DNA of 64,000 nt, from NCBI GenBank assembly GCA_964613215.1, contig CAZTHK010000002.1, forward strand, positions 149,685 through 213,684. The letters are read 5' to 3'. Each line of letters begins with the position of its first letter. The first letter of the stretch is position 1. The notes beneath the pieces are model-generated. The model saw only the letters and a program-made list of their open reading frames with translations. It did not search any database and was not told where the DNA came from. The translations under genes and the position numbers were made by a program. The stretch is from an uncultured bacterium. Its GTDB lineage: Bacteria > Krumholzibacteriota > Krumholzibacteriia > Krumholzibacteriales > CAZTHK01. This document shows, in pieces, positions 19,331 through 60,806 of this stretch.

Positions 19331-19656
19331 CATCTCTTTCCTTCCCTGTTTAGTTAAACAGGCTTTTAATTTAAAGAATAAAACCAGGTTTGGCAAGGTA
19401 ATTATAAGTCAAATTTCAGTGGTTTAGGTGGTATCCTGCAGCCGGTTAATTATTTGCCGTTACACCATATTTCCCGGGCCAGTCTTTTAACAGGCTGCTT
19501 TCATTTTCAGCAGACGGTCCGTAAATATAGAGATTGGCGGTTATCCATAGAAATAAATAAACTCTTGATAATTAAAAAGGTTCTGATAAGATAAATATAT
19601 AAATCATGTTATATAAATTAAGGGAAATGGCTTGTAGAGGTTCTAAGGAGTTTGTC

Positions 19657-19745
19657 TGATAACCGCAGGGCAGAGTTCCACCGGCTTGCCCGTGGGTGGA
19701 TGTGAACTCCGCCCGAACGGGCGGCTAGCGAAGTTTGTATTTTGA
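19657..19745 (+). promoter_or_regulatory. Conserved leader element copy 1: motif AACCGCAGGGCAGAGTTCC + hairpin CCACCGG../..CCGTGGGTGG (19661-19699), followed by GC hairpin CCGCCCGAACGGGCGG (19709-19724) and U-tract (19734-19744)
   Basis: shared with copies at 50888, 57641 (and degenerate 22727, 62255); hairpin stems differ in sequence but keep pairing; located 155 nt upstream of HK ATG. Confidence 0.5.
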
Positions 19746-50647: not shown

Positions 50648-50887
50648 AAAACGGATGAAAAGAGGGGCCAACATGGAAAATAATTAGCCGTTTTCGGCAC
50701 CCTTTACCCTATTTATTATTCAGGTAAAGCCAAAAAAATAAGGTCATATAATTAGCATAATTATTAACTTGTTATAATAAAATAAGTTAGCATCACACCA
50801 TACCTCTGTTTATTAAAAAAATCAGCCATTCCCACCTGGTTCCTCCGTGGCATGCAAGTTGCGTTTTACAGGTTGGTTATAGCTCTA

Positions 50888-50978
50888 TTGACCCGAGGGG
50901 CTGAGTTCCGCCCGCCTGCACCCGGGTGAATGTAATCCTTCCCGGGGCAACGAGCCGGGCTCGTACTTTTGAGGTACG
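50888..50978 (+). promoter_or_regulatory. Conserved leader element copy 2: CCCGAGGGGCTGAGTTCC + hairpin CGCCCG../..CGGGTG, then hairpin CGAGC-CGG-GCTCG + ACTTTTG
   Basis: 163 nt upstream of HK ATG 51054; also shares proximal box TATCTGCGT (51000-51008) with copy 1 (19767-19775). Confidence 0.5.
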
Positions 50979-54687: not shown

Positions 54688-54833
54688 ACATAGAATTCTG
54701 CACAGAGATAACTAAGCTTTACATAAAAATCAACAGAAGAATCCGGCATAAAAGTTGTACCAGTAACAAATAGCATGAATTATAATAACTTCATGCAAAG
54801 TCTGATAGTTACAGCCCCAGGCACAAGAAATAG

Positions 54834-54861
54834 TTGACATTACCGCCAGAATAGTTAACAT
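54834..54861 (+). promoter_or_regulatory. Sigma70-type promoter for tRNA-Phe: -35 TTGACA (54834-54839), 16-nt spacer, -10 TAACAT (54856-54861)
   Basis: perfect -35 hexamer, appropriate spacing, 11 nt before tRNA 5' end. Confidence 0.5.
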
Positions 54862-54872
54862 TACTGTCTGAT

Positions 54873-54945
54873 GGGAAGGTAGCTCAGTCGGTAGAGCAAC
54901 TGATTGAAAATCAGTGTGTCGGCGGTTCGATTCCGTCCCTTCCCA
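54873..54945 (+). tRNA. tRNA-Phe (anticodon GAA), 73 nt, CCA not encoded
   Basis: hand-folded cloverleaf: acceptor GGGAAGG/CCTTCCC, D-arm GCTC-AGTCGGTA-GAGC, anticodon stem ACTGA/TCAGT with loop TTGAAAA, T-arm GGCGG-TTCGATT-CCGTC, discriminator A. Confidence 0.9.
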
Positions 54946-54977
54946 TATTGTTATTTGCCACCAGATAATTAATTGTT

Positions 54978-55169
54978 TTAACCAGCCTTGTTCTCTGACT
55001 CTATCTTCTTCATCAGTTTTTCATGTTGGCTGGAAGCCTGTGTTATCCTTGCCAGAATTGCCAAAAAACATGCACCACAGATAATTCCGACACCCATTGT
55101 AGCTTCCGTTAAAAATAAAGCTCCAACAAAAGCCACTAATAAAGCGATGATAACCAGTAAAATAGTCAT
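54978..55169 (-). CDS. Possible small membrane protein (63 aa)
   Basis: ORF only; two hydrophobic segments; no homology recognised. Confidence 0.25.
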   Translation of the reverse strand: MTILLVIIALLVAFVGALFLTEATMGVGIICGACFLAILARITQASSQHEKLMKKIESENKAG

Positions 55170-55585
55170 TTTACCTCCTGATTTAATCTATTGTACAAAG
55201 ACCTTCCCGAGTTACAATAAAGCAAAGTTTTTATTATTTCTTAAATTGATTTTTAATATTTCCCCAGCTCCATGAAATTAGTTTATCACGAATCAACTTT
55301 AAACTCTATATTGCAGCAAAGCGCTGAGTATGAATTCGTAATGATTTTTCCAGGTTTGGGCCGGCATATAATAATAATTCCTGGATAATAAACTTTTTTC
55401 TGCAGATCACCCTCGTTTGATTGAGAAATACTTTCGCTCTAACATGTTGTTCAATACACTTATGTAAGGGAAAAAACAGAACGGTTAATAGTGGTTCCCG
55501 GGTTTCCCTGTGAATCCTGGTGATTCTCGGGATACTACCCGGACCTGGTTAGGCATTCGGCCAGGTCTACACTATCACCGGAGCT

Positions 55586-55602
55586 TAAGGCCGGCTGATA
55601 TG
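55586..55602. promoter_or_regulatory. Operator-like inverted repeat TGTCA-CTTTC-TGACAG, related to the AbiEi promoter palindrome
   Basis: shares core TGTCA-N5-TGACAG with 56078-56102 site; a further TGACA half-site follows 10 nt downstream. Confidence 0.3.
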
Positions 55603-56044
55603 AAAATGTTATAAATTGTCACTTTCTGACAGTATCTGACATATAACGGATGGATATACCGAATAACTGGTTGTTTTATAGATTCTTGTTAATCCGGGCA
55701 GTTAAATTAAATGTGGAGTTTCCCCAAAAAATGATGCAGGAATTTCATAAGATAATAAATAACAAGCCGTTATTAATATTGATAAGTGGAATATGTTTTC
55801 CGGGGTTTTTTCATCCGTTGCCTGGTGCTTCAAAACCCTCTGCGGGGAGAGCGGGCATGGTTTTCTGCCCCGGAGGGGCAGAAAGAGCGAGCCCGAGACG
55901 GGAGCTGCGATTCCCACGCTGGGGGAGTCGACAGCGATTTTGAAACACCAGGCAGCGGAATCATAGAGGTCGAATGAAAATTGGGGAAACTCCAGAGAAG
56001 AGTTACCTTGGTTTTTCTGATTTCGCTATCAGTTCGAATATTTC

Positions 56045-56102
56045 TTGCATAATCAAGCTTTATGTATATAATTGATAGAAACTGTCACAATATGACAGTT
56101 TC
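56045..56102 (+). promoter_or_regulatory. abiE promoter (-35 TTGCAT 56045-50, -10 TATAAT 56067-72) with overlapping perfect palindromic operator GAAACTGTCA-CAATA-TGACAGTTTC (56078-56102)
   Basis: 10-bp perfect inverted repeat with 5-nt spacer starting at predicted TSS, immediately upstream of AbiEi-like gene. Confidence 0.5.
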
Positions 56103-56110
56103 TTGCAAAT

Positions 56111-56761
56111 ATGAGGTATATAATGCAACCATTGACCAGGAAAGTTTTTGAAGAACTACCGCGCAGTGATTTCACCATGGAGGATGTAATTGCCTTATTC
56201 CCCGTCAATGGTCAGCGCAGGTACGGGCTGGTAAAACGGGCTATTGCCAGTGGAGAGGTGATTCATATCCGAAGGGGGCTTTATTGTCTCGCTCCACAGT
56301 ACCGGAAGAGAAAGGTGAATCTATATTCTTTAGCTCAGCGCATCAACGGTCCCTCGTATATCAGCCTTGAATCAGCCTTGAGTTGGTATGGTTGGATTCC
56401 CGAAGCCGTATATACACTAACCAGTGTATCATTAAACAGGTCCAGGGATTTCGATACTCCCCTGGCTTTTTTCAGCTATACCAGGGTTCCCCAGAAGGTC
56501 TTTTATACTTCTGTGCAAAGGATTACTGATGATGATGACAATTCTTTTCTGATGGCAACACCGCTGAAGGCTCTGGCTGATTATGTGTATGTGAATAAGA
56601 AGGACTGGGCTGGTGCAAAACCTGTAACCGAGAGCATGCGAATCGATCGGGAGGAGTTAGGATCAATAACTGACGGCGAGATTCAACTGCTGATCAGTAA
56701 TTACAATAGCCGTAGAGTTAAAAAATTTCTTAAGGGATTGGAGAGGGATCTTAAATCATGA
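56111..56761 (+). CDS. AbiEi-like antitoxin/transcriptional regulator (type IV TA); probable start at second ATG 56123 (GAGG 6 nt upstream)
   Basis: N-terminal winged-helix region with conserved IHIRRGLYCL (AbiEi_4-like), ~210 aa, translationally overlapping downstream nucleotidyltransferase gene (ATGA). Confidence 0.65.
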   Translation: MRYIMQPLTRKVFEELPRSDFTMEDVIALFPVNGQRRYGLVKRAIASGEVIHIRRGLYCLAPQYRKRKVNLYSLAQRINGPSYISLESALSWYGWIPEAVYTLTSVSLNRSRDFDTPLAFFSYTRVPQKVFYTSVQRITDDDDNSFLMATPLKALADYVYVNKKDWAGAKPVTESMRIDREELGSITDGEIQLLISNYNSRRVKKFLKGLERDLKS

Positions 56762-57624
56762 GCGTTAAAATTATTCAGAACAGGCTTGATTCCTATAATT
56801 GCAAAACGGACTTGGAGGAGGAGCAGGCTCTCCGGGAAATCACTCAGGAAGTTTCACTGGCGGCGCTGTCGAGAACCGATTTTTTCAAATCCGCAGCATT
56901 TCAGGGGGGGACCTGCCTTCGTATATTTTACGGATCCAACCGTTTCTCGGAGGATTTCGATTTTCTTTTAAAGAAACCTGACGGCAGTTTTAATCTGAGC
57001 CCCTATTTGAATAAAGTTTCAGATGAATTGGATGCATATGGTTACAAACTGGAATTATCAGACCGGTCGAAGGAGGGAGGCACAGTTAAAAAAGCATTTA
57101 TCAAGAATTCTTCGATCGGTAAAATTTTAAGGTTGAAGTATTTGAAACCTGATAGATCCATGCGTAAAATCAGAATTAAGTTCGAAGTCGATACCAATCC
57201 CCCGGCGGGAAGCAATTATGAAGTCAAATATATGGATTTTCCATTTGTTAGTTCAGTAACAGTTCAGGATCTTCCCAGCCTTTTTGCCGGTAAAATACAT
57301 GCAATGTTGTGCAGGGATTATGTGAAGGGAAGGGACTGGTATGATTTCATCTGGTATACCTCGAGGGGAACCGGTATTAACTACCGGTTTCTTGCTTCGG
57401 CTCTAAAGCAGCAGGGCCCATGGAGGGGGGAGGATATGGAGGTTGGCAGCAGATGGGTTCTGGAGGCACTGCGAGAGAAGATAATCACACTTGACTGGAA
57501 GAAGGCAAGAGAAGATATAAGGCGGTTTTTACAGCCCTCCGAACTGGCATCGCTGGAGCTGTGGTCGCAGGAGCTATTCCTTGACCGCCTGGAAAATTAT
57601 GCTTCCGGAATGAATAAATATTAG
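56758..57624 (+). CDS. AbiEii/AbiGii-family nucleotidyltransferase toxin (type IV TA, DUF1814)
   Basis: conserved GGTCLRIFYGSNRFSEDFDF nucleotidyltransferase motif region; 288 aa; paired with AbiEi-like gene. Confidence 0.75.
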   Translation: MSVKIIQNRLDSYNCKTDLEEEQALREITQEVSLAALSRTDFFKSAAFQGGTCLRIFYGSNRFSEDFDFLLKKPDGSFNLSPYLNKVSDELDAYGYKLELSDRSKEGGTVKKAFIKNSSIGKILRLKYLKPDRSMRKIRIKFEVDTNPPAGSNYEVKYMDFPFVSSVTVQDLPSLFAGKIHAMLCRDYVKGRDWYDFIWYTSRGTGINYRFLASALKQQGPWRGEDMEVGSRWVLEALREKIITLDWKKAREDIRRFLQPSELASLELWSQELFLDRLENYASGMNKY

Positions 57625-57640
57625 TGAAATACTATTCTAA

Positions 57641-57690
57641 TAACCCTGAGGGTAGAGTTCCACGGGTTTGGCCGTGGGTTATGTACTAAT
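57641..57690 (+). promoter_or_regulatory. Conserved leader element copy 3: AACCCTGAGGGTAGAGTTCC + perfect hairpin CCACGG-GTTTGG-CCGTGG + GTTATG
   Basis: begins 17 nt after AbiEii stop, 230 nt upstream of cstA. Confidence 0.45.
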
Positions 57691-57921
57691 CCAAAGGGCA
57701 GAATTCAATCTGTTAGCACATAAGTGCATGTAATCCCCCCGGAGGGCTTCCAGCTGAGTGGGTAATTTTTATAACTAATGCAACGGGCCTGCCCGTGAAT
57801 GACCACATTAAAGTTATTGTTATTCCCCCCCGGCTTGTTGTAGAATGAAAGGTTGTTAATTTTGCAACCAGGCCGACGGCCGGCCGGTGGAGACCGGAAC
57901 AGCAGATAACTGGAGGGATTT

Positions 57922-59640
57922 ATGACTACCACATTGATCCTTATAATCGGTCTGGTACTGTATGTTCTGCTTTACTTCATATACGGTAAGAGGCTGGAAA
58001 GGATTGTAAAGGCCGACGACAGCTGTGAAGCACCCTCTCACCGCTATTACGATGGGGTGGATTACATACCGGCGAAGAGGGAGGTGCTTTTCGGTCATCA
58101 CTTCGCCTCCATAGCGGGTGCTGCTCCCATAATAGGACCGGTGCTGGCAATGGCCTGGGGCTGGGCTCCGGCCATTCTGTGGGTGTGGCTGGGAAATATC
58201 TTTATGGGAGCGGTTCATGATTATCTGGCGGTTATGGCATCGGTGAGATACCGGGGAAAATCGATACAGTTTGTTGCCTCCGATCTGATATCCAGCCGTA
58301 CGGGGAAGAACTTCTACTGGCTGGTCTTCTTTCTGCTTATTCTGATCATAGCCGCCTTCGGAGCGGTTATCGCAGGGATGTTCATACATGATCCCTCTGT
58401 GGCTTCATCATATATATTCATTATTATCTCAGCCCTTCTGCTGGGTGTGATGATGTACCGGCTTAAATGGAATTTTATCCTTTCCACGGTGATAGGGGTT
58501 GTCCTGCTGGGATTTTCACTGTGGCTGGGGATAAGGGTTCCCATAACCCTGGGCTGGAACAGCTGGATCCTGATCCTGTTTTTTTACATCATCATAGCTG
58601 CTTCCATACCGGTTAATATACTGTTGCAGCCCCGGGACTATCTGAATTCATATCTGCTCTACGCCGGGCTGATAATAGGAGGGCTGGCTGCTCTGTTCAG
58701 CCTGCATAAATTCGCAGTACCGGCATTTACCACCTTCGCTCCGATTATCTCCCACGGGAAGCCCACCCCATTCTGGCCGGCCATTGTTCTTATAATTGCC
58801 TGCGGGTCTCTGTCGGGTTTTCACTCACTGGTGGGGTCGGGCACAACTTCCAAACAGATCAATTGTGAATCAGATGTTCTTCCCATAGGCTACGGGTGCA
58901 TGCTGGCGGAGGGTTTTCTCTCCACCATTGTTATTATATCCATAGCCGGTTTCGGATACGGGCTGCTCAAGGCGAAGGCGGGCGCCGAAATAACCAGCTG
59001 GGGAAGCGACTACACCCGGCTTATGATGGAGCACTATCCCAAGGCGGTGATGTTCACCCATTCCTACTCCGAGATGGTGGATTCAACCTTCCTCAAATTC
59101 ATCCCGCAGAAGATAATCGCCGTGCTGGCGGGGATGTGGGTCGCCTCATTTGCCCTTACCACTCTGGATACCACCAACCGGCTGGCCAGGTACACCATTG
59201 CTGAGATGCTCAAACCCCTGGAGGATAGCGCCCGGGGACTGTACAACATTCTCTCCAACAAGTGGGTAGCATCTGTGATACCGGCAGCTATTGGTATGTG
59301 GCTGGCCTGGAGCAGGAACTTCACCATACTTTGGCCCTCCTTCAGTACTGCCAACCAGCTTATCGCATCCATAGCACTTCTGACCACTACGGTGTGGCTT
59401 AAAAAGAGAGTGAAAGCAGGCAGCATGAAGATTGCCCTGATACCTGCCATGATACTGTGGTTTACCGTAACCGGGGCGATAGTCTGGTTCGGAGCAGCCG
59501 TTCTGCCTTCCACCATCAGCACCGATCCGGCCACCGGAATTGCAGTAACCCTGATCGAGGTAGTAATGTTCGTTCTGAATATCGTATTTATCCGGGATTT
59601 TATTATAAGCTACAGGGAGCCGGTAGAGGGTGAAGTTTAA
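57922..59640 (+). CDS. cstA: Carbon starvation protein A family transporter (CstA)
   Basis: conserved FGHHFASIAGAAPIIGPVLA motif, ~16 TM, 572 aa. Confidence 0.9.
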   Translation: MTTTLILIIGLVLYVLLYFIYGKRLERIVKADDSCEAPSHRYYDGVDYIPAKREVLFGHHFASIAGAAPIIGPVLAMAWGWAPAILWVWLGNIFMGAVHDYLAVMASVRYRGKSIQFVASDLISSRTGKNFYWLVFFLLILIIAAFGAVIAGMFIHDPSVASSYIFIIISALLLGVMMYRLKWNFILSTVIGVVLLGFSLWLGIRVPITLGWNSWILILFFYIIIAASIPVNILLQPRDYLNSYLLYAGLIIGGLAALFSLHKFAVPAFTTFAPIISHGKPTPFWPAIVLIIACGSLSGFHSLVGSGTTSKQINCESDVLPIGYGCMLAEGFLSTIVIISIAGFGYGLLKAKAGAEITSWGSDYTRLMMEHYPKAVMFTHSYSEMVDSTFLKFIPQKIIAVLAGMWVASFALTTLDTTNRLARYTIAEMLKPLEDSARGLYNILSNKWVASVIPAAIGMWLAWSRNFTILWPSFSTANQLIASIALLTTTVWLKKRVKAGSMKIALIPAMILWFTVTGAIVWFGAAVLPSTISTDPATGIAVTLIEVVMFVLNIVFIRDFIISYREPVEGEV

Positions 59641-59911
59641 TCTGTTCGGATATATAAAGAATCTGCTGGCAGGCTTTGACAGGCTTTCCAGAGACAGAGC
59701 GACCGAAACCCTGGAGTATGAACTTCAGGAGATGGAGTTCGCATTCGTTCAGATGCTGTTTTCTTCTTTTATAGGGTTGCCGGCTGTGCCGGAATCTGTG
59801 GCTCTGGAAGTTCTTCCCCATATGCAGGATGAGCTGGCCAGGCTGGAGGGACGGGCAGCCGGTTCTGAAGATCTCCTGGCGGAACTGTTCGGAAAACTGG
59901 ACTTTGAATAA
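59630..59911 (+). CDS. Small acidic hypothetical protein (93 aa, GTG start overlapping cstA stop)
   Basis: tight coupling: overlaps cstA by 11 nt, ends 1 nt before ArsA-like ATG; GAGG 6 nt upstream. Confidence 0.4.
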   Translation: MKFNLFGYIKNLLAGFDRLSRDRATETLEYELQEMEFAFVQMLFSSFIGLPAVPESVALEVLPHMQDELARLEGRAAGSEDLLAELFGKLDFE

Positions 59912-59912
59912 G

Positions 59913-60806
59913 ATGAAATGCTACTTCTTTACAGGTAAGGGGGGAACGGGAAAGACCACCGTGGCTGCTTCCCTTGGCTGGCAGCTGGCACAGAGGGGGC
60001 AAAGGACTCTCCTGGTCTCCCTCGATCCGGCCCACAGCGTGGGGGATTTCTTCTCTGCTGATATCGATGGGGAAAAAGAGATTATTCCCGGGCTCATTGT
60101 CCAGGAGCCCGATTTCGACAGCATAAACAAAGAGTACATAAGCCAGCAGCTGGATACACTCAAGGGCATGAACCGCCAGCTTACCGTGTTCAACCTGGAA
60201 CACCTTCTGGACAGCCTGGAATACTCGCCCGGCCAGGAGGAATACGCCACCATCCTGCACCTGAAAAGGACCCTGCAGGAAAATAAAAACAAATTTGATT
60301 TTATTATATTCGACACTCCCCCCACCGGCATGATACTGCGGATGTTTTCGCTGCCCTTCCGCTCGAAGCTCTGGCTGGAGAGGCTGATCAAACTGAGAAA
60401 AAAGATCGTGGACAGAAGGGAGCTTATAGGGGATATCAGAAAAAGGGAGGATGCGGATAACTATTACCGGAATGATAAGGTGCTGAAAAAGCTAAAGGAA
60501 CTCCTGGAGGATTATTCCCGGCTGGCTGATTTCTTCCAAAGGGAAGCACATATCTATCTGGTGATAAACAACGACCCGCTGGCCCTCCGGGAATCGGTAC
60601 GGCTTCGGGATAAGCTGAAGAATATGGAGATTAACTTATCCGGGGTAATAAACAACAAGTTCGATGAGTCTGACAGCACAGAGCAGCTGGAAGAAGCGGG
60701 ATTCGATCCCGGCAGTATGATAATAATAAAATCAGGGATAAACAGGGCAGAGGAAGGATACACAGTACCGGTAGATCTGATCGAGAAATTAACCAGTCAT
60801 GAGTGA
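59913..60806 (+). CDS. ArsA/Get3-family P-loop ATPase (single-domain, 297 aa); start at ATG 59913 (MKCYFFTGKGG)
   Basis: deviant Walker A GKGGTGKTT, DTPPTG signature (ArsA DTAPTGH-like), LDPAHS motif. Confidence 0.8.
   Translation: MKCYFFTGKGGTGKTTVAASLGWQLAQRGQRTLLVSLDPAHSVGDFFSADIDGEKEIIPGLIVQEPDFDSINKEYISQQLDTLKGMNRQLTVFNLEHLLDSLEYSPGQEEYATILHLKRTLQENKNKFDFIIFDTPPTGMILRMFSLPFRSKLWLERLIKLRKKIVDRRELIGDIRKREDADNYYRNDKVLKKLKELLEDYSRLADFFQREAHIYLVINNDPLALRESVRLRDKLKNMEINLSGVINNKFDESDSTEQLEEAGFDPGSMIIIKSGINRAEEGYTVPVDLIEKLTSHE

Follow-up and report, generated by a model that had tools for sequence, protein, structure and literature searches.

The AbiE systems of Streptococcus agalactiae and Lactococcus lactis (COG5340–COG2253) are bicistronic toxin–antitoxin (TA) modules in which overlapping genes encode a winged helix-turn-helix (wHTH)-type regulator, AbiEi, and, downstream of it, a DUF1814 nucleotidyltransferase, AbiEii. 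Mycobacterium tuberculosis Rv2827c–Rv2826c and the MenA/MenT pairs likewise combine a DUF1814 toxin with a COG5340-type antitoxin. AbiEi of S. agalactiae and Rv2827c of M. tuberculosis have been shown to regulate their own operons through inverted repeats in the promoter (PMC3985639; PMC7319586). The S. agalactiae operator consists of two 23-bp repeats that are 3 bp apart (PMC3985639), and Rv2827c has two pairs of sites within −1 to −131 (PMC7319586). According to a 2026 preprint, in which AbiE is moved to type VII, AbiEi of S. agalactiae binds the toxin AbiEii and triggers its auto-phosphorylation at T65, a residue two positions ahead of the first catalytic Asp. Here, we analyze an AbiE-type locus downstream of a tRNA-Phe gene in a stretch of 64,000 nucleotides (the window; GenBank contig CAZTHK010000002.1, positions 149,685–213,684) from an uncultured bacterium of the Krumholzibacteriota. 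All coordinates are those of the window, and contigs and loci used for comparison are given L numbers. A preliminary description, made from the sequence, had called the pair a type IV TA system; this is the traditional label of the family, and the preprint puts the S. agalactiae system in type VII. The best explanation of the locus, in which we have high confidence, is a compact abiE cassette of ~1.6 kb (56037–57625, with promoter, operator, abiEi, and abiEii) that was probably acquired horizontally and that occupies a rearrangement-prone site downstream of tRNA-Phe, between a lineage-native RNA-like element and cstA. Its features are as follows.

56045–56072, + strand: abiE promoter (−35 TTGCAT at 56045–56050, 16-nt spacer, −10 TATAAT at 56067–56072; read from the sequence)

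56078–56102, no strand: O_prox, perfect palindrome GAAACTGTCA-N5-TGACAGTTTC (10+10; inverted-repeat search)

56123–56761, + strand: abiEi, predicted 212-aa antitoxin/autorepressor of COG5340 type (PADLOC, NCBIfam, gene linkage)

56758–57624, + strand: abiEii, predicted 288-aa DUF1814 nucleotidyltransferase toxin (Pfam PF08843, PADLOC, motifs)

AbiEii Q49 and G50–G51: motif I (this and the next three by comparison with Dy et al. 2014)

AbiEii R62-F-S-E-D66-F-D68: motif II

AbiEii K179 and R186: motif III

AbiEii R192-D193-W-Y-D196: motif IV

Hidden Markov model (HMM) searches place both proteins in AbiE families, as the preliminary description had proposed. AbiEii matches Pfam PF08843 with 116.7 bits (cut-off 22.5; E = 2.1e-33; residues 34–260) and the PADLOC AbiEii model PDLC02293 with E = 1e-99. 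AbiEi, read from the ATG at 56111, matches the PADLOC AbiEi model PDLC02240 over its full length (E = 9.5e-59; 5–214 of 216 aa); it also matches 18 further PADLOC AbiEi models and NCBIfam TAA_AbiEi (E = 2.1e-14; profile positions 21–164 of 172). The ATG at 56111 is an in-frame alternative start. We set the start at 56123, because a GAGG lies 6 nt upstream, the gene is called there in an independent assembly, and the equivalent Met is present in 29 of 29 aligned homologues. The two genes overlap by 4 nt (ATGA, 56758–56761), in line with the overlapping module described before. L033 has the order of antitoxin then toxin too, as do at least seven other loci (L017–L020, L025, L026, and L028). More than 2000 AbiEi homologues were found in metagenomes, many of them named "predicted transcriptional regulator of viral defense system" by JGI.

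The catalytic motifs of the toxin are intact. Dy et al. (2014; PMC3985639) defined them as hG[G/S]x~15DhD with an Arg (motifs I and II), Lys/Arg (motif III), and +DxxD (motif IV). The QGGTCL…RFSEDFDF signature noted earlier is present, and G50, G51, R62, S64, D66, D68, K179, R186, R192, D193, and D196 are invariant across eight homologous toxins (62–75% identity). G50/51, R62, D66/68, K179, R186, and the RDWYD of residues 192–196 correspond to G49/50, R63, D67/69, K173, R180, and D192 in the S. agalactiae and L. lactis systems. S64, two residues before D66, is the counterpart of the phosphoacceptor T65 before D67 in the S. agalactiae toxin, an equivalence by position only. The antitoxin of 212 aa is shorter than Rv2827c, which has been described as larger than AbiEi (PMC7319586).

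By analogy with the characterized family, toxicity, antitoxicity, DNA binding, and phage defense would be expected of the pair, and the following mechanism is proposed. Free AbiEii, with the Pol-beta fold of DUF1814 nucleotidyltransferases, would arrest growth, most likely by adding nucleotides to the 3′ ends of tRNA. MenT toxins modify tRNA acceptor ends, and a modification of this kind is most likely also the activity of AbiEii here. The C-terminal domain of AbiEi would neutralize AbiEii, possibly as in S. agalactiae through auto-phosphorylation of the toxin, for which S64 stands at the place of T65 relative to the motif II aspartates. The N-terminal wHTH domain of AbiEi would bind the palindrome over the transcription start and repress its own operon. 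The toxin would then be set free on phage infection or when the cassette is lost.

The promoter TTGCAT-16-TATAAT is present as described before; a generic promoter scan missed it because its −35 hexamer matches TTGACA at only three of six positions. The perfect palindrome reported over the predicted start site was found as O_prox, which begins 6 nt after the −10 element and spans the expected transcription start. These elements were compared with 12 metagenomic loci, whose AbiEi homologues are 50–69% identical, and with the two closest loci (72–73%). The core site lies upstream of abiE in 10 of 11 homologous loci, promoter-proximal in 9 of the 11, and in nine loci a TGTCA-N5-(C/T)GACA-type site is located 31–40 nt before the abiEi start. 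Eight loci have two palindromes that are exactly 70 bp apart, two loci have one, and in L019 the region is lost. The layout shared by the eight loci is (A/C)C(T/C)GTCA-N5-(C/T)GAC(A/G)G, ~15 nt, TTGCA, ~17 nt, a TATAAT-like −10, ~10 nt, the second palindrome, a Shine–Dalgarno sequence, and ATG. Over all homologues, the −35-like element starts with TTGC(A/T/C), and the −10 is mostly TATAAT-like (TATAAT, TATACT, or TATACA). Since homologous loci of other organisms carry this core at the corresponding place in the promoter, O_prox is very likely the AbiEi operator. The palindrome is a conserved cis element of the subfamily and is located so that a protein bound to it would obstruct RNA polymerase, and the negative autoregulation suggested in the preliminary description is likely.

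The arrangement resembles the S. agalactiae system in that inverted repeats lie over the promoter. It differs in having a compact palindrome of 19–25 bp (ACTGTCA-N5-TGACAGT) instead of two 23-bp repeats 3 bp apart, and in the subfamily the promoter normally lies between a pair of such palindromes with 70-bp spacing. The multiple promoter-spanning sites of Rv2827c (PMC7319586) echo this dual-site layout, but they are 23-bp repeats with 13-bp gaps, whereas the sites here are self-palindromic.

Two side observations concern the homologous loci. In L019 (1100–1170), ~130 bp with both operators and the promoter is lost, and the upstream sequence (..TCCGTTGTCATGCGA) is fused to the abiEi start; because of this loss, the L019 copy is presumably transcribed by read-through and is not autoregulated. 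A block TATATC(C/T)G(T/C)TGT(C/A)ATG(C/T)GA is found ~30 nt upstream of the distal operator in L018 (~3850), L020 (~430), L021 (~165), and L019 (~1135), which is ~130–150 nt upstream of the abiEi start in the loci carrying it. This block might mark an edge of the cassette, or a divergent gene might begin there.

A second occurrence of the operator core lies far upstream in the window, and a degenerate palindrome is located near the position of the homologues' distal operator.

55613–55637, no strand: O_far, TTGTCAC-TTT-CTGACAG (core TGTCA-N5-TGACA at 55617–55631; palindrome and repeat searches)

56017–56032, no strand: degenerate palindrome CTGAT-N6-ATCAG (read from the sequence)

The upstream TGTCA-N5-TGACAG site of the preliminary description is thus real (55617–55632), at a distance of 466 bp and not 480. 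The core TGTCA-N5-TGACA occurs twice in the 64 kb against 0.02 expected (100-fold excess), and none of 100 shuffles reached two. The 47 nt around O_far (55599–55645) are 72% identical to 56065–56111. When taken in the opposite orientation, O_far also resembles the distal operator of L034 (81% over 32 nt, E = 0.4), and simple matching of the two orientations gave 21.2 versus 22.4 mean matches. Its half-site flanks are AAATTGTCA / TGACAGTAT, compared with GAAACTGTCA / TGACAGTTTC in O_prox. Most simply, O_far may once have stood 70 bp from O_prox as the distal operator and then have been moved away, which leaves 396 bp of extra DNA (466 − 70) between the two sites. Alternatively, it may be a duplicate. 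The displacement may have occurred by insertion or by inversion, the latter staying a conjecture.

The limits of the cassette were compared with its surroundings, for which the following features are needed.

54872–54946, + strand: tRNA-Phe (GAA) (ARAGORN; Rfam 74 bits)

57636–57679, + strand: copy 3 of a ~50-nt intergenic motif, ..ATAACCC..AGGG.AGAGTTCC....CCGTGGGT.ATGT, outside the abiE cassette

57805–57921, + strand: native cstA upstream/promoter region, conserved with the cstA upstream regions of L003 and L013 (alignment A2); right limit of the genome-specific DNA

Other abiE cassettes are homologous to 56037–57625 only; the homology starts abruptly 8 nt before the −35 and ends at 57596–57625. 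The G+C content at third codon positions (GC3) of the abiE genes is 0.47–0.50, compared with 0.61–0.71 in the flanking genes. The closest AbiEi homologues (61–73% identity) are from metagenome-assembled genomes of Planctomycetota, Lentisphaerota, Victivallales, and Clostridiaceae, with no Krumholzibacteriota named among them. AbiE homologues with 48–50% identity are found on 25 plasmids. Like the plasmid genes annotated "nucleotidyl transferase AbiEii/AbiGii toxin family protein" (Sphingomonadaceae, Arcobacter, and others), which align over the full length and have a small gene adjacent upstream, the toxin gene here follows its partner directly; unlike these homologues, seven of whose plasmids are conjugative, the present copy is chromosomal with no mobility genes nearby. 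In every relative sampled, abiE is absent beside cstA or tRNA-Phe. The relatives are distant, and their flanks are rearranged: those found by CstA (≤86% identity) have in common only the cstA–DUF7990–ArsA block, and those found by the PAS-domain histidine kinase (PAS-HK; ≤77%) only the left flank up to tRNA-Phe, with the nearest contig (L032) stopping just after the kinase gene. The order UvrA–epimerase–histidine kinase–response regulator–PAS-HK–tRNA-Phe is kept in L029, where other genes follow, so on gene order tRNA-Phe is a synteny breakpoint.

The preliminary description had taken 54.9–57.7 kb as a single acquired island with its right edge at the motif copy. This breakpoint, the adjoining tRNA gene, and the low G+C content of 54947–57700 (39–45%) are what would be expected if the segment had been integrated at tRNA-Phe by site-specific recombination and its integrase later lost, yet we consider such an origin improbable. 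In agreement with the earlier account, no integrase was found, either in any frame of 54947–56122 (Pfam) or in the gene table of L001, and a search of the same spacer for pseudogene remnants (integrase or second abiE) found none, not even an integrase fragment. As also noted before, there is no attachment-site direct repeat: with up to three mismatches allowed, the last 20 nt of the tRNA match nowhere else in the 64 kb. The sole repeat is a chance-level, AT-rich one of 10 nt (TATTGTTATT), whose right copy lies inside the conserved cstA promoter. Furthermore, cassette homology is limited to 56037–57625, the cstA promoter from about 57805 is native, and the motif at 57636–57679 is a genome-native repeat. 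The structured element upstream of the cassette (described below) looks native as well, because it is common to Krumholzibacteriales genomes without abiE there. Of the proposed island, a probably foreign abiE cassette stands, by its GC3 and its homologues, and acquisition of the segment as a whole is improbable; the island most likely shrinks to an imported cassette of 1.6 kb, set in an intergenic region that is mosaic and rearranged.

Several points weigh against the interpretation as an acquired, autoregulated AbiE cassette with a role in defense. The Pfam models AbiEi_3_N and AbiEi_4 match the expected N-terminal region of AbiEi below their gathering cut-offs (17.2 bits versus 26 and 15.4 versus 25), so the Pfam search suggested earlier succeeded for the toxin and not for the antitoxin. 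The equivalog cut-off of TAA_AbiEi was missed (53.6 bits versus 150), the AlphaFold2 model of AbiEi has a mean predicted local distance difference test score of 51.4, from a too uniform alignment of 30 sequences, and PDB sequence and profile searches gave no match to a solved structure for AbiEi, the fold looked for being one of two domains like PDB 6Y8Q (N-terminal wHTH and C-terminal antitoxicity domain). In its distance from direct PDB or Pfam AbiEi hits, the sequence is unlike the S. agalactiae and L. lactis systems. The antitoxin is thus assigned by its PADLOC and NCBIfam matches together with gene linkage, and judged by these scores, AbiEi here is a member of a divergent subfamily and not an equivalog. 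The canonical distal operator position holds just the weak palindrome at 56017–56032, with no conserved operator, and O_far, at 466 bp, can be read in more than one way and in either orientation. As the relatives are distant (CstA 86%, PAS-HK 60% identity), the absence of abiE elsewhere is no proof of recent insertion. Lastly, when 32 coliphages were tested in Escherichia coli, S. agalactiae AbiE protected against none of them, because of which a defense role should not be assumed. The pair could instead act mainly as an addiction/stabilization module or a stress-responsive TA system, a possibility that we regard as tangible but as the lesser one. AbiE is reported to stabilize plasmids and integrative and conjugative elements (PMC3985639; PMC11062541), and homologues of the present pair were found on plasmids and not in phage genomes. 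On the other hand, L. lactis AbiE and related DUF1814 systems protect against phages, PADLOC classes the matching profiles as defense proteins, and the chromosomal cassette has no mobile element left to stabilize.

Between O_far and the abiE promoter lies a structured element, which is a separate conserved feature and not part of AbiE.

55714–55994, + strand: 281-nt unit bounded by a perfect 14-nt inverted repeat, TGGAGTTTCCCCAA / TTGGGGAAACTCCA, with an AT-rich arm and a structured core inside

55815–55958, + strand: ~145-nt four-branch core with closing stem P1 (21–23 bp) and hairpins P2, P3/P4, and P5

L035 2179–2326 (− strand), L036 2837–2981 (− strand), L037 6022–6167 (− strand), and L013 13603–13748 (+ strand): further copies of the element

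Closing-stem sequences: CCTGGTG / CACCAGG in the window, ATTGGTA / TACCAAT in L036, and ATTGATTA / TAATCAAT in L037

The "perfect 8-bp hairpin" reported at 55864–55883 is real, but its stem has 10 bp (55862–55884) and is P4 of this element; it had been left unassigned to any known RNA, and no Rfam family was found for it. Compared with shuffled sequences, the 281-nt unit folds with z scores of −7.2 (+ strand) and −10.1 (− strand) and the core with −7.8. The homologous copies were found by searching the minus-strand translation against 1.84 billion protein representatives, which returned three tiny spurious open reading frames (ORFs); the contigs carrying them (L035, L036, and L037) contain the element, and a subsequent pattern search added L013, from the same genome as L037. 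The unit is 85% identical to L035 over 55719–55994 and 75% identical to L036, in which the AT-rich arm stands on both sides of the core as a long inverted repeat. The element thus occurs in three other Krumholzibacteriota-type genomes, each without abiE nearby. In L013/L037 (Krumholzibacteriales; CstA 86% identical), it lies just downstream of the cstA–DUF7990–ArsA–206aa block, and L035 is a relative too, with one gene 84% identical to that of L013.

The junction and the P3/P4 sequence are nearly invariant across the copies. The sequence of the closing stem is wholly different between genomes, with the pairing kept, and P4 and P5 have compensatory changes too. On the hand-drawn structure, 95.4% of the cells are paired, compared with at most 54% when partners are slid (alignments A4 and A6), and 11 pairs are changed on both sides, a number reached by none of 500 shuffles. 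With just four distinct sequences, this covariation is good and not conclusive. A covariance model (R1) scores 160–163 bits at five loci. The G–U pairs fall on the + strand of the window and would be A–C mismatches on the other strand, which favors an RNA read in the abiE direction. Searching 55714–55994 against Rfam 15 gave nothing at the gathering score, with only chance-level hits (E = 2–7) that are not common to the homologous copies, and a literature search for the conserved core sequence was empty. A retron ncRNA (non-coding RNA) was considered for the inverted-repeat-bounded unit and dropped, there being no reverse transcriptase nearby and a four-branch junction unlike the msr/msd layout. 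As a side observation, a short CTGA(T)-N6-(A)TCAG palindrome follows the a2 end of the unit at a distance of 22–32 nt in the window (56017–56032) and likewise in L035 (~2085–2100); it may be part of the RNA unit, for example a terminator or a binding site, instead of a decayed AbiEi operator.

In its long closing stem, multi-branch core, intergenic site, and terminal inverted repeats, the element is like orphan structured bacterial ncRNAs and like those repeats of the miniature inverted-repeat transposable element (MITE) type that have folded transcripts (ERIC and Correia). It is unlike them in having no match in Rfam 15, in being apparently single-copy without target duplication, and in its covarying stems. 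A MITE-like element inserted in the abiE promoter region would have split the 70-bp operator pair and would account for the perfect 14-nt terminal inverted repeats, which are kept in L036 (17–23 nt) and at one end in L035, for immediate neighbors of the unit that differ in each genome, and for the point at which cassette homology breaks off (56037), which falls exactly between the −35 and the place where the distal operator would be expected. We nevertheless regard this origin as unlikely. No target-site duplication was seen at either copy inspected, and no further copy was found by the covariance model in the 64-kb window or in 328 kb of related DNA (one per related contig), or by DNA searches with the 281-nt unit of plasmids, phages, and viral contigs. 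Compensatory changes and strand-specific G–U pairs are not expected from independently decaying transposon ends. In relatives, the unit keeps to a broad neighborhood near the cstA block, and the unit is 110 bp too short to make up the extra 396 bp. We prefer to read the element as a structured RNA gene restricted to this lineage, at slightly better than an even chance on the sequence comparisons.

The position of O_far just upstream of this element raises the possibility that it is functional, in that bound AbiEi would control the structured RNA or loop to O_prox and thereby couple a host RNA to the TA module. O_far keeps a complete core, which would hardly recur by chance; an extended −10-like TGtTATAAA (55607–55615) directly precedes it, and the + strand suggested by the G–U pairs puts the RNA downstream of it. 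However, the RNA element is present in the other three genomes without such a site or abiE, the half-site flanks differ from those of O_prox, and 466 bp is far from the 70-bp spacing of the family, and this role is quite doubtful. For the structured RNA, an undescribed ncRNA family seems evenly balanced between being right and wrong: the ~145-nt core within the 281-nt unit would be limited to Krumholzibacteriota-type bacteria, transcribed from the + strand, and independent of AbiE, and here the arrival of abiE or a later rearrangement would have left it with a copy of the AbiEi operator on one side and the abiE promoter on the other, its expression perhaps now being controlled by AbiEi.

The remaining features of the region flank these elements.

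54978–55169, − strand: sm63, gene for a predicted 63-aa small protein with two transmembrane segments (ORF list; gene call in the Logan contig L001, an independent assembly)

19655–19697, 50885–50930, and 57636–57679, + strand: copies of the ~50-nt motif, consensus TCT.ATAACC(C)..AGGG.AGAGTTCC.C..G..TG.CC.TGGGT.ATGT

The ~1.1 kb of AT-rich DNA described directly 3′ of tRNA-Phe measures 1.18 kb (54947–56122, 1176 bp), with 39% G+C against 51% for the window. It had been called essentially ORF-free, which does not hold, as sm63 lies within it. This gene has a perfect AGGAGG Shine–Dalgarno sequence 4 nt before its ATG and, in a promoter scan, a sigma-70-like promoter, TTGTAA-16-TACAAT, at 55217–55190; its product gave nothing above threshold in Pfam or NCBIfam. 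It is convergent with tRNA-Phe, and the relative L029 has no equivalent gene after tRNA-Phe. Directly upstream of tRNA-Phe (54829–54870), a tandem 21-nt direct repeat, AATAGTTGACATTACCGCCAG / AATAGTTAACATTACTGTCTG, includes the promoter-like TTGACA-16-TAACAT, and L029 has a similar TTGACA...TTAACAT. The stretch at 55480–55600 is a GC-rich patch (54%) within AT-rich DNA. It had been presented as structured, but its fold is not significant (z = −1.9 and −1.4 against shuffles, both strands), and no coding signal, Rfam match, or homologue among the fetched loci was found.

On the right side, the GAGTTCC motif copy reported at 57655 was confirmed, and two related copies stand at 19.66 and 50.89 kb. 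Each copy of the ~50-nt motif lies 160–290 nt upstream of a + strand ORF (19816, 51054, and 57922, the last being cstA). The motif is genome-native and lies outside the abiE cassette. No copy was detected in front of cstA in the relatives, and either a cis-regulatory RNA or a site bound by a protein is conceivable. A sigma-54 promoter was rejected by eye, as the spacing and bases are unsuited. The gene cstA is followed by an overlapping 93-aa DUF7990 gene and then by an ArsA/ParA-like ATPase gene, in the window (57922–60806) and in L003, L013, L009, L005–L007, L010, L011, and L014. The conservation of this trio across several phyla suggests a functional unit.

The AbiE pair is one more member, in the poorly studied candidate phylum Krumholzibacteriota, of a family with thousands, and conceptually it changes nothing. 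For the family, the comparison points to an operator grammar of the 212-aa AbiEi subfamily, ACTGTCA-N5-(C/T)GACAGT, usually present twice, 70 bp apart, and bracketing the promoter; it is unlike the two characterized AbiEi operators and would offer a ready system for how AbiEi-type regulators read DNA. The only novel item at the locus is the RNA-like element: conserved, covarying, and without a database entry, it is a candidate new class of ncRNA that can be searched for by its covariance model.

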